64,000 bases of DNA from an uncultured cyanobacterium (GCA_963703315.1 OY969811.1:864001-928000), one strand, 5' to 3'; counted from the stretch's first letter, positions 42,001-45,000 are shown. Numbers: made by a program.

Positions 42001-45000
42001 GCTCAGCCCCTATTTTCATTGATGCGAGCATTTTCGGTAAGTCTTCTTGGATAAATTCCAGATCGATTTCACTCAAAAATTTCGTGATTTCGGGGATCGG
42101 TTCAGGATAATGCTTTTGATAAAGGGCGATCGCCTCTAGTAAATTTTGGACAAAGCGACTGGCATGGTTCAGGTTGCCGTAGATAAAGTTAACGGGATTA
42201 TTAATTTCATGCGCTACACCTGCCACTAACTGCCCCAAGCTGGACATTTTTTCGGTTTGAATCAGTTGGCTTTGGGTTTTTTGGAGGTCAGCAAGGGCAT
42301 TTTTGATCAGTAAGGCTTGGGCTTGGGCATTGGCGGCATTGGCTTGGGCAGAGTCAAATAATTCCGCTTGATCGATCGCGATCGCCAATTGGTTAGCAAC
42401 TGCTTGCAATAGCTCAACTTCATCGCCACGCCACGGACGACTACCCTGACAATGTGCCGCCACAATTACCCCTAACTTTTGCGATCGGGTTTTAATTGGT
42501 ACAAGTAACTGCGAAGTAAATCCATATTCAGCAAGGACGATGCGACTAACATTGTCCAAATCTGGATTGGTATAAATCGATTGAATTTGAATAATTTCTT
42601 GCTTGAGTAAGCGTTGTCCTAGTTTGGGTAATTGCGAAAGCGGATAGGTCGGGGCATCCATCAGGGAGACTTGACTCGCGGCATAATGCACTAGCTGAAA
42701 TTCGGCGGGATCGGTATTGGGAATATACCAAAAGAAATTACATAGATCGATTCGCAGTAAATCCTGTACCTCATTTACTGCGGTTGCCAAAATCGTATTC
42801 AGATCTAAGGAGTTACGAATTTGGCTAGTTAGACGACGATTTAAGATCTCTTCGCGCTTGACTAGATCTTTGTAGCTTTGGCGCGATCGCTCTAGCTCCA
42901 TTTCGGCACGGCGGCGCTCGGACTGCTCAATTTTGCGATCGCTAATATCATGGGCAACAATCACAATGTTCTGCATATCCCCCTGTTCATTTCGCATCAC
43001 ACTGCCCGACGACTCCAAGATCCGCCAAGTACCATCTTTGTGCTGCATTCGATATTCTAAAACTTTGCCCACTCCCGTTTTTAAGGTTTCTTCCGCCGCT
43101 TGAAGCACTTGGACTTGATCATCGGGATGAATTTTATCGTATGCCCATGTGCCTTGTAGTTCGGCAGTCGTATAGCCCAAAACCTTCTCGTAGGATGGAC
43201 TATTGTAAATGCGATAGCCCTGAGCATCGATCACTGCAATTAGATCGGCAACATTCTCCATAATCGATCTCAACAGGCGATCGCTTTGCAATGCTGATAG
43301 GTCAGAGGGATCGGCTTGGTGATTGGCTGATTCTGCCTGATGCTCGATACTTGCGTCCGTCATAATGAGTTTTTAGAGATAGGACAGCATGAAATCAAAA
43401 TAAGTTTGCCTAACTGTGTAACCAAATGCAATAGCATTTTTTAAGTAGCTAATTTAGTTTTGAATGAAATGTTGAATCTTAATTTAAATCTTAATTTGAA
43501 TCTTACTGGGAATCGTAATTTGCAGCCTAGTTTGGATCGAACAAATAATCGCGTATATAGCGCTTTTAAAGAAATGATTGTCTCCCCGCCGAAGGGGGGG
43601 AGACAATCTCGTACTTCACTAGACCAGTCTCTATGGTTAAAAGGACTAACGATCGCGATCGCCTGTGTGATCACAACTTCCTTGATGATGCTATTGGCTG
43701 CTCCCAGCATGGCAGCATTACCCACCAAAAGTGCAATCAAAGATCCGCGCATTATCTTACGCAATGCTTTACCCATTGACAACGATCCTCTCCGTGACAT
43801 TCAGCGCACCCTAGAGCAAATGCCCCGCCAAGCCAATCTCAAGCGCTGGAGTAGTCTCAAAAAAGATGCGGAAGTCATTTCCCAGAGCCTAACCCAAAAC
43901 CGCGATCAGCTAATTGCCGAAGTTAAGGGCGATCGCCAAGCATTAGTTACAGAACATTTAACTAGCTTAGCAACGGCATTAGTACCGCTTCAAGAAGCGA
44001 TCGCGATTAAAGACCGCAACAGTGTCAAAGCTTTATCGGAAAAGGCGTTGGACTATGTAGGTTTAGTAGAAACCGACTTTATTCAAGCATTCCCCTTTGA
44101 AGTACCAGCGAAGTATGCCAGCTTGCCTCAACTCAAAGGTCGCGCCCTCGTTGAGTTAGCCACCGAAAAGGGCAATCTCACGATTACTGTCGATGGCTAC
44201 AATGCCCCAGTTAATGCAGGTCAATTTGTGGATCTCGTCCAAAAACGCTTTTACGATGGCTTGACCTTTACCCGTGCTGATGAGAACTACTATCTGCAAA
44301 CAGGTGATCCCGATGGTGCAGCCGATGGCTATATCGATCCCAAAACTGGTAAAGATCGGACAGTACCAATTGAAGTGCGTCTCCCCGATCAGAAAGTTCC
44401 TAACTATGGCAAAACCTTTGAAGAGCTAGGTTTGTCAGGAACCTTGCCAGTGTTGCCTTTTGCAGCTTTTGGTACTGTGGCAATGGCACATCCTAACGAT
44501 AATCCCAATGCTGGTTCATCGCAGTTTTTCATCTACTTGTTTGAATCAGAATTAACACCCGCAGGCTTAAATTTGCTAGATGGCAACTACACCGTTTTTG
44601 GATATGTCACCGATGGCAAGGAAACTTTGGATAAACTAAGACTAGGCGACAAAATTTTGTCTGCCCGCGTCATCAGTGGTGCGGAAAATCTGATCAAGTA
44701 AGTTGATGGGGCAATTAAATATAAAACCCCAAAACCTGTGGCGCACGCGCAGCGTGCGCCACAGGTTTTGGCTCTGGTTTTTAATTATGCCAAGCTACTT
44801 ATAGCTATCGTCAGTCTTGTTAGGACACAAAACCAGAAGACGAGTTGCGGCGCTTCGCGCCGCAACTCGCTTCTTGGGTTTTGATTTGTCCTAATACAAA
44901 TAGCGATGATTACATCACAATTATGAGGAAACAAATTTAATGGGTACTACCCGCAACGAACCGTATATTTTGAGCCTGCCAAATTCTAGTAGTGCCATGT

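Follow-up and report, generated by a model that had tools for sequence, protein, structure and literature searches.

The gap between a CYP38-like cyclophilin gene and a phoH-like gene of an uncultured cyanobacterium contains two perfect hairpins, and raises the question of where such hairpins come from, how their arms remain complementary and why so many of them lie behind genes. The window, as the whole 64-kb stretch of DNA that was analysed is called here, shows the cyclophilin gene at 43469..44701 (plus strand; ORF call, Pfam PF00160 and PF21329) and the phoH-like gene at 44940..45902 (plus strand; ORF call and Pfam). Between them lie two adjoining MITEs. The first, of family F1a, has 103 bp (44699..44801), TA at both ends and a degenerate left end; its ends are similar to those of the IS630 elements L043/L046/L052, and its left TA is that of the cyclophilin TAA stop (44699-44700). 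Its central perfect hairpin (44729..44771) shows a 20-bp stem, with arms 44729-44748 and 44752-44771, and the loop GCA. The second, of family F0 (44800..44914), shares the TA at 44800-44801 with the first; its left end agrees with the ends of the IS630 that this genome carries, and its right end is decayed, with a boundary (44914) set by eye against family members. Its central perfect hairpin (44841..44869) has a 13-bp stem, with arms 44841-44853 and 44857-44869, and the loop TTC, which is GAA on the minus strand. A genome-wide survey's note had given these two hairpins as a representative pair, and both are present where it placed them. The short phoH leader is similar to the leader of relatives lacking both MITEs. 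Among 42 distinct versions of the cyclophilin-phoH gap, 20 contain a perfect stem of at least 6 pairs with a 3-nt loop, in many different sequences, and several relatives show short GGGGC-AAA-GCCCC hairpins in the orthologous gap. Directly after the phoH stop lies a solo hairpin (45903..45933; 14-bp perfect stem, loop TTT/AAA), an example of the resident class.

The window contains further elements of this kind: a MITE with ISAzo13-type ends (33345..33456), TAA on both sides and a central 19-bp perfect hairpin (33382-33422); an F2 element of 101 bp (49389..49489) with TACC..GGTA ends and two hairpins; and an F4 MITE (50331..50424) with a CC-GAA-GG apex. A shortened F4 MITE is located at 43556-43633, within the long 5' extension of the cyclophilin ORF, and the true start of this gene is therefore probably downstream, at the ATG at 43685. 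The sole Rfam match in the 64-kb window is the small RNA Yfr1 (RF01116; 33572-33641, minus strand), about 115 bp from the ISAzo13-type MITE; elements of the Nezha, Microcystis MITE or SDR type gave no match there. Contigs of run X1, which may be the source sample, cross three of the window hairpins without a single difference. No clean skip of an element was found among 15 of the 114 joints in contigs of runs X1-X4, and one contig of these runs shows 51853-51955 replaced by 107 other letters. Since named Pseudanabaena assemblies contain the same hairpin core and the X1 contigs span three hairpins, the hairpins are not an assembly artefact.

The studied genome (G000; 4.57 Mb in a single contig, 42% GC, 8,189 HIP1 sites) belongs, by inference from sequence, to the genus Pseudanabaena. 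An inverted-repeat scan of the whole genome found 1,827 centres with a perfect stem of at least 12 bp and a loop of 0-10 nt, 1,164 of them with a 3-nt loop, and only 3, 4, 1 and 5 such stems in four shuffled genomes; the roughly 1,700 perfect hairpins reported by the survey are thus real. Inverted repeats are in general excess in bacteria, according to PMC4060949. Against 4,273 genes called by a simple gene caller of our own, 1,759 hairpins (96%) are intergenic, and their density is 7.15/kb in convergent, 2.7/kb in tandem and 1.4/kb in divergent gaps. A hairpin starts within 60 nt past the stop of 1,364 of the 4,273 genes, and at 708 of 1,484 convergent gene ends a perfect hairpin lies no more than 60 nt away. 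The intergenic placement, the ranking of the gaps and the enrichment past stops agree with what the survey had described.

The survey had treated all these hairpins as one superfamily; they are, however, two populations with differing placement, one borne by MITEs and the other solo. The 1,610 odd-length hairpins were used for flank-inclusive clustering and for the classification of arms. Clustering gave families of 315, 182, 103, 77, 73, 37 and 15 members, and 739 singletons; the large families reach about 95-115 bp, with TA at the ends. The arm classifier, with a false rate of 4 in 400 sides, assigned both MITE ends to 174 perfect hairpins, one arm or end to 428 and no arm to 1,008. At least 602 hairpins (37%) are therefore MITE centres or remnants, a floor because the classifier under-counts F2. 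The survey's link to IS630-type MITEs stands to the extent that some of the hairpins lie inside such elements, but this share, with transposon-derived arms in at least 37%, is not marginal. The IS630-type label nevertheless fails for the set as a whole: 1,008 hairpins are armless, F2 shows a 3-bp duplication and one window element is of ISAzo13 type. Full MITEs number 20 in convergent, 109 in tandem and 86 in divergent gaps, which measure 67, 365 and 211 kb, and are thus distributed roughly by gap length, whereas the solos, about 1,000, prefer 3' ends, with 336, 565 and 112 in the same gap types.

The MITE population shows the features of DDE-type transposition. Terminal inverted ends alone recovered 278 elements. 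An IS630 of 960 bp is present in G000 in four copies, as two identical pairs, and its ends match family F0; given a -1 slip at an A9 run, its transposase frame amounts to 291 aa. This is the only family with an intact cognate transposase in G000, the partners of other families being seen only in relatives. Candidate IS630 ends were obtained from 20 of 30 loci in relatives of the genus (two of them spurious), and by inspection IS630 ends match the arms of F0a, F0b, F1, F3 and F4. None of 18 full IS630 elements contains an internal perfect hairpin. Matches spanning the junction of joined flanks were obtained for 25 of 219 full elements, about five of them clean by eye and many others due to adjacent elements. 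In-genome empty sites with a single TA are found for the elements at C1:201177 (13 empty paralogues), 4013667 (63), 1475612 and 652124, and orthologous gaps between species are filled and empty in both directions, with G000 filled and the relative empty or the reverse. These empty sites show a TA target duplication by the IS630-type MITEs. The mobility that the survey proposed thus holds for the MITEs, with empty sites and a cognate transposase, but not for the solos, which show no sign of spreading of their own. No same-species empty site was found, the nearest genome of the genus being only 83% similar in phoH and 17 metagenome loci 81-90% in protein.

Family F2 has 101 bp, TACC..GGTA ends and an off-centre GC..GC hairpin, and of its 44 copies 30 show a direct repeat of 3 bp; its partner transposase was not found among 33 of 50 IS5-like and ISAzo13 loci. 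ISAzo13-type ends with a 3-bp repeat are shown by the window element at 33345-33456 and by a family in another genome (G103). An ISAzo13 origin of the whole F5 family was rejected, with only two of 22 end matches in G000 near a hairpin, and holds only for single elements. Insertion into the TA of stop codons was likewise rejected as the cause of the 3' enrichment: 18 of 778 element ends lie there and about 2.9% would be expected, since stop codons on one strand or the other account for 3,398 of the 58,991 intergenic TA. At G000:C1:113200-113308 and 300256-300367 lie chimeric MITEs, in which a single core is flanked by arms from two families; in such chimeras cores have been copied onto the arms of other families. 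Other repeats were also observed. One IS630 copy (G000:C1:1307323-1308282) lies inside another repeat of about 1.1 kb with four uninterrupted copies. Two arrays of tandem repeats with a 126-bp unit, about 85% alike, are found at G000:C1:450328-451340 and 2902344-2903437, one of which adjoins an IS630 copy. The sole Y1 (RAYT-like) gene, at G000:C1:348590-349520, has a duplicated block of paired GTAG/GCAG-type repeats on both sides; these differ from the hairpins studied here, which, as the survey stated, are unrelated to them.

The solos are placed tightly behind genes. Their start has a median distance of 3 nt past the stop, and in 776 of 1,091 solos behind a stop it is within 10 nt, so that a GC-rich stem directly past the gene end, as in an intrinsic terminator, is found in these 776. 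Solos follow 601 of 1,484 convergent gene ends and precede only 50 of 1,482 divergent starts. By a rough pattern, a T-tract close to the loop is present in 488 of 948 solos behind a stop and in 47 of 273 MITE hairpins. Their shape is terminator-like and bidirectional, as the survey had it, and termination itself is predicted. G000 lacks Rho. The solo-type pattern has 9-83 copies in each of the 47 other genomes of the genus, all of them positive, and 0-1 copies in each of 23 other genomes of the family. Comparison of 189 orthologous gaps gave a hairpin on both sides in 48, on one side in 33 and 28, and on neither in 80, which corresponds to an odds ratio of 4.2, or 3.6 when matched for length. 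Both arms match in at least 8 of 10 positions in only 19 of 61 solos of orthologous gaps; a one-arm homology test was abandoned for its high chance level (27 of 61). A minority of the solos thus appears to be inherited at orthologous sites. By eye, no empty site of a solo was seen in the 189 gaps, and the solos apparently do not spread independently. A MITE-like core, with at most one mismatch to a main MITE core, is present in 271 of 911 solos (30%; 13 expected), and 456 of the 1,610 hairpins are similar to no MITE core.

Both populations change symmetrically. The 278 elements chosen by their ends alone offer 5,025 ungapped stem cells, which contain 233 complementary double changes, 21 non-complementary double changes and 286 one-sided changes; the 254 double changes compare with about 31 expected under independence. 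Among variants seen once, 58 are complementary, 14 non-complementary and 85 one-sided. Relative to the asymmetric outer arms, the loop has one direction in 125 elements and is flipped in 134, with 19 unclear. Flips are also found between nearest neighbours with 0-2 differences (22 of 50) and among identical copies, where loop direction is mixed in two of six groups and unmixed in four. On five family trees, which are weakly resolved, shuffling the labels gives no significantly greater number of flips (P 0.06-0.98), and their clustering is near-significant on two trees (P 0.06 and 0.08). In named assemblies, nine of 80 loci could be oriented: five one way, three flipped and one other. Armless solos likewise flip and extend between species.

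The stems also grow into adjacent DNA. Among 224 stems that cross a stop codon, 83 pair at least four bases further, where about one is expected, and pairing extends at least four pairs beyond the T-tract in 236 of 420 hairpins, where two are expected, this excess being partly family consensus. In 354 orthologue pairs, a stem reaches at least five bases past the stop at 16 of 708 gene ends. Where C-termini are conserved (DFYELQDAY, VGYRLSQLS and RCVLEAEAC), one of the two species has a far arm that mirrors its own coding end in reverse complement, down to the synonymous bases. On the transcribed strand, mismatches show G-U in 110 cases and A-C in 93, and loop direction relative to transcription is 392 to 365. 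In L128-L140 (G013), at the locus orthologous to G000:C1:1580796, the coding end is likewise reached by a hairpin of GTAG type, so that symmetrisation acts outside the GC..GC class as well. The pattern in both populations is that of arm-to-arm copying at the DNA level, and the mechanism of copying would be template switching, although similar footprints would be expected from gene conversion among the copies of the chromosome, or from repair of a cut cruciform. Symmetric change from arm to arm, which the survey had not recognised, explains the architecture shared without a shared sequence. Loss of repair genes was rejected as a cause of the high rate, mutS, mutL and recJ being present in G000; all 48 genomes of the genus have sbcD, and 47 have xseA. 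Most of these genomes show two sbcD-like genes above the family cut-off, and G000 contains another recJ-like sequence, split into two pieces that lie about 1.7 kb from each other (G000:C1:833722-837159).

At the apex of 1,331 perfect 12-bp stems the loop is GNA in 626 (47%), and the commonest single loop is AAA (330). The extra-stable DNA mini-hairpin is formed by GNA triloops only, according to section 2.3 of PMC13037366, and the survey's mini-hairpin apex, which fits these 626 stems, is therefore overstated as a general description, most not being true mini-hairpins. A C-G closing pair is present in 1,026 of 1,034 loops of the purine-N-A (R-N-A) type. The GNA apex was not supported as the driver of perfection, because loop class has no predictive value: the perfect fraction is 0.66 for GNA and 0.64-0.69 for other loops. 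Perfection is predicted by the C-G closing pair, with 0.64-0.69 in its presence against 0.37 (21 of 57).

The distribution among cyanobacteria goes against the survey's description of the repeats as specific to the genus. The 80 core-pattern matches listed, out of 122, belong to uncultured records, named Pseudanabaena, Pseudanabaenales and one Phormidium tenue. Stems of at least 12 bp number 40 per 100 kb in G000, 25-38.5 in three relatives (800 kb) and 3.8 in 40 other cyanobacteria (730 kb), and E. coli has one in 50 kb. A 17-mer has 313 copies in G000, the number that the survey had given, and is present in all 12 genomes of the genus that were sampled. Outside the genus, G103 contains it 112 times and G148 131 times, both being of other families, and any match is found in 22 of 201 genomes. 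Since the proteins of G103 and G148 have a median likeness of only 49% and 61% to those of G000, these copies are not from contaminating contigs. In stretches of G103 picked for their matches, the density is 39.5 hairpins per 100 kb. The MITE design is thus present in other cyanobacterial families as well. A locus of another family, L202 (G180:C65:20001-30982), has a 44-bp perfect stem with a GC-GGA-GC apex and six hairpins in 11 kb.

The account that we consider probable is that delivery by DDE transposases, symmetrisation and retention act together. DDE transposases, mainly of IS630, would move non-autonomous elements of about 100 bp that consist of two transposon ends around a GC-rich hairpin; the transposon ends, the target duplications and the cognate enzyme of F0 are seen in the genome. 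Delivery duplicates TA, or 3 bp in non-IS630 families, and the elements have often landed in each other. One arm would then be repeatedly copied from the opposite arm in DNA, most likely through a template switch that the replication fork makes where the hairpin is folded, and this copying would mend mismatches, make changes and deletions symmetric, lengthen stems into adjacent DNA and invert the loop, a symmetry of change that is itself observed. In young copies it would outpace the build-up of point mutations. The MITE arms would decay towards solos, and hairpins directly past a stop, a placement that is again observed, would be retained, in a cell without Rho, as intrinsic terminators that act both ways or as protectors of 3' ends. 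Passed on by inheritance, these hairpins would go on drifting symmetrically, and in the end nothing but the GC..GC apex and the A/T tracts would recall their origin. The convergent-gap enrichment is also expected from tolerance alone, by the reasoning given for such gaps in PMC3049150. If this account is true, these repeats form a natural genome-scale reporter of template switching, with hundreds of near-identical elements whose loop direction is a record of events, in culturable strains, and Pseudanabaena offers a direct test of whether a Rho-less cyanobacterium gains hairpin termination from mobile DNA. It is also a warning that compensatory changes in such stems are no evidence for selection at the RNA level.

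The direction of the change may be either from MITE to solo or by capture of host hairpins. In the latter case the solos would be ordinary ancestral terminators of the genus that transposon ends captured into MITEs; symmetrisation would act as in the main account, and the MITEs would have added little to the terminator set. The 18 full IS630 elements without an internal perfect hairpin imply that the cores came from elsewhere, and capture would also fit the one apex common to unrelated transposase families, the chimeras with cores on the arms of other families and the GGGGC-AAA-GCCCC hairpins in the orthologous gap of several relatives. The solo motif, however, is missing from sister genera, while distant families have the MITE form, and the 428 one-armed or end-less remnants are a continuum from MITE to solo; a host origin is accordingly unlikely, though worth serious consideration. 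Alternatively, the hairpin could be a working part of the MITE, a cruciform that kinks the element of about 100 bp so that its ends meet in the transposase complex, the same role as proposed for the IHF site of Correia elements; flips would come from transposition or gap repair, and terminator use would be a by-product. In favour of this reading, a perfect triloop hairpin closed by C..G forms the centre of IS630-, ISAzo13- and TACC-ended elements alike, in at least two cyanobacterial families; the closing pair is nearly invariant in the 1,034 R-N-A loops, and loop direction differs between identical young copies. But end-less solos also flip and extend between species, which makes transposition unnecessary for symmetrisation, and the GC..GC hairpin of F2 is off-centre. 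Three HU/IHF matches are present in G000, and they do not distinguish IHF from HU. As the main reason a working part is decidedly improbable, and such a role can also add to the main account.

Selection on RNA structure alone, with the stems of terminators or RNase III substrates kept perfect by stepwise compensatory mutation, would explain the placement past stop codons and the GC stem with A/T tracts. It would not explain why neither G-U nor a loop strand is preferred on the transcribed strand, why pairing runs far beyond the T-tract and into coding DNA, or how three bases of a loop are inverted between otherwise identical copies, which is impossible by single substitutions; these inversions largely refute it, and we give it very little credence. 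The least credible proposal is a REP-like spread of solos in which an HUH (RAYT) enzyme would recognise the apex in its folded form. The conserved hairpin apex and the one Y1 transposase gene of the genome are in its favour, but the repeats beside that gene are of another kind, the families show the ends and duplications of DDE-type elements, and the 189 orthologous gaps showed no empty site of a solo. The families are single hairpins between DDE-type ends, with no paired REPs as in REPINs. Delivery, symmetrisation and retention together thus remain the preferred reading. A bolder version of it, offered tentatively as a possibility, is that the termination signals of Pseudanabaena are built from transposon cargo: unrelated MITEs would converge on the C..G-closed hairpin because folding aids the movement of an element of about 100 bp, fast arm copying would keep about 1,800 hairpins perfect, and the remnants would become genus-wide terminators in a phylum otherwise poor in canonical ones.

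Several known systems show parts of this picture. Nezha, the Microcystis MITEs and the Nostoc SDRs are reportedly small palindromic mobile repeats of cyanobacteria, and are likened here by description only. No description of the present repeats in Pseudanabaena was found in the literature searched; the text of a MITE census (10.1101/2024.01.18.576219) does not name the genus, and its supplements may list some of these MITEs. IS630-type MITEs are known as RUP of Streptococcus pneumoniae and as the Correia/NEMIS elements of Neisseria (PMC2229807, PMC10969869). Like these, the present elements are non-coding, have about 100 bp, ends like those of a resident IS630 and a TA target, are intergenic and insert into mobile elements. 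Unlike them, as far as the cited accounts go, the present set shows at least seven arm pairs from several IS630 lineages together with non-IS630 families, a perfect hairpin at the centre that lies either way round between the arms, shuffling of arms and cores, and hundreds of decayed and solo derivatives. The SPRITE repeats of S. pneumoniae and the DUS-pair terminators of Neisseria, for which PMC3049150 proposes co-option as terminators, are likewise terminator-shaped and enriched at 3' ends and in convergent gaps. They differ, in the account given there, in number (about 30, against about 1,000 solos here), and the present repeats have MITE forms with empty sites and partner transposases and a sequence that diverges symmetrically, their terminator function being predicted. 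By the figure in PMC12642595, canonical terminators close only 22% of the transcription units of Synechococcus elongatus, whereas here nearly half of the convergent gene ends (the 708 of 1,484 given above) have a perfect hairpin within 60 nt.

The same holds for the change and the apex. The footprints of template switching described in PMC8794818 and PMC5941160 are compensatory changes, stem extension and loop inversion, and all three are present here. The excess reported in those accounts is modest and statistical, whereas here loop direction is near random in young families and the density of stems of at least 12 bp (40 per 100 kb) exceeds that of other cyanobacteria (3.8) about tenfold. Like the d(GCGNAGC) mini-hairpin of PMC13037366, the present hairpins have a GC or CC stem base, C-G closing and, in 47% of stems, a GNA loop; unlike it, their commonest loop is AAA, which formed no mini-hairpin in the assays cited from that source, and the type of loop does not predict perfection. 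The parts, MITEs, terminators and template switching, are known, and what is notable is the scale, the convergence of unrelated MITEs on one hairpin and the near-random direction of the loop among young copies.
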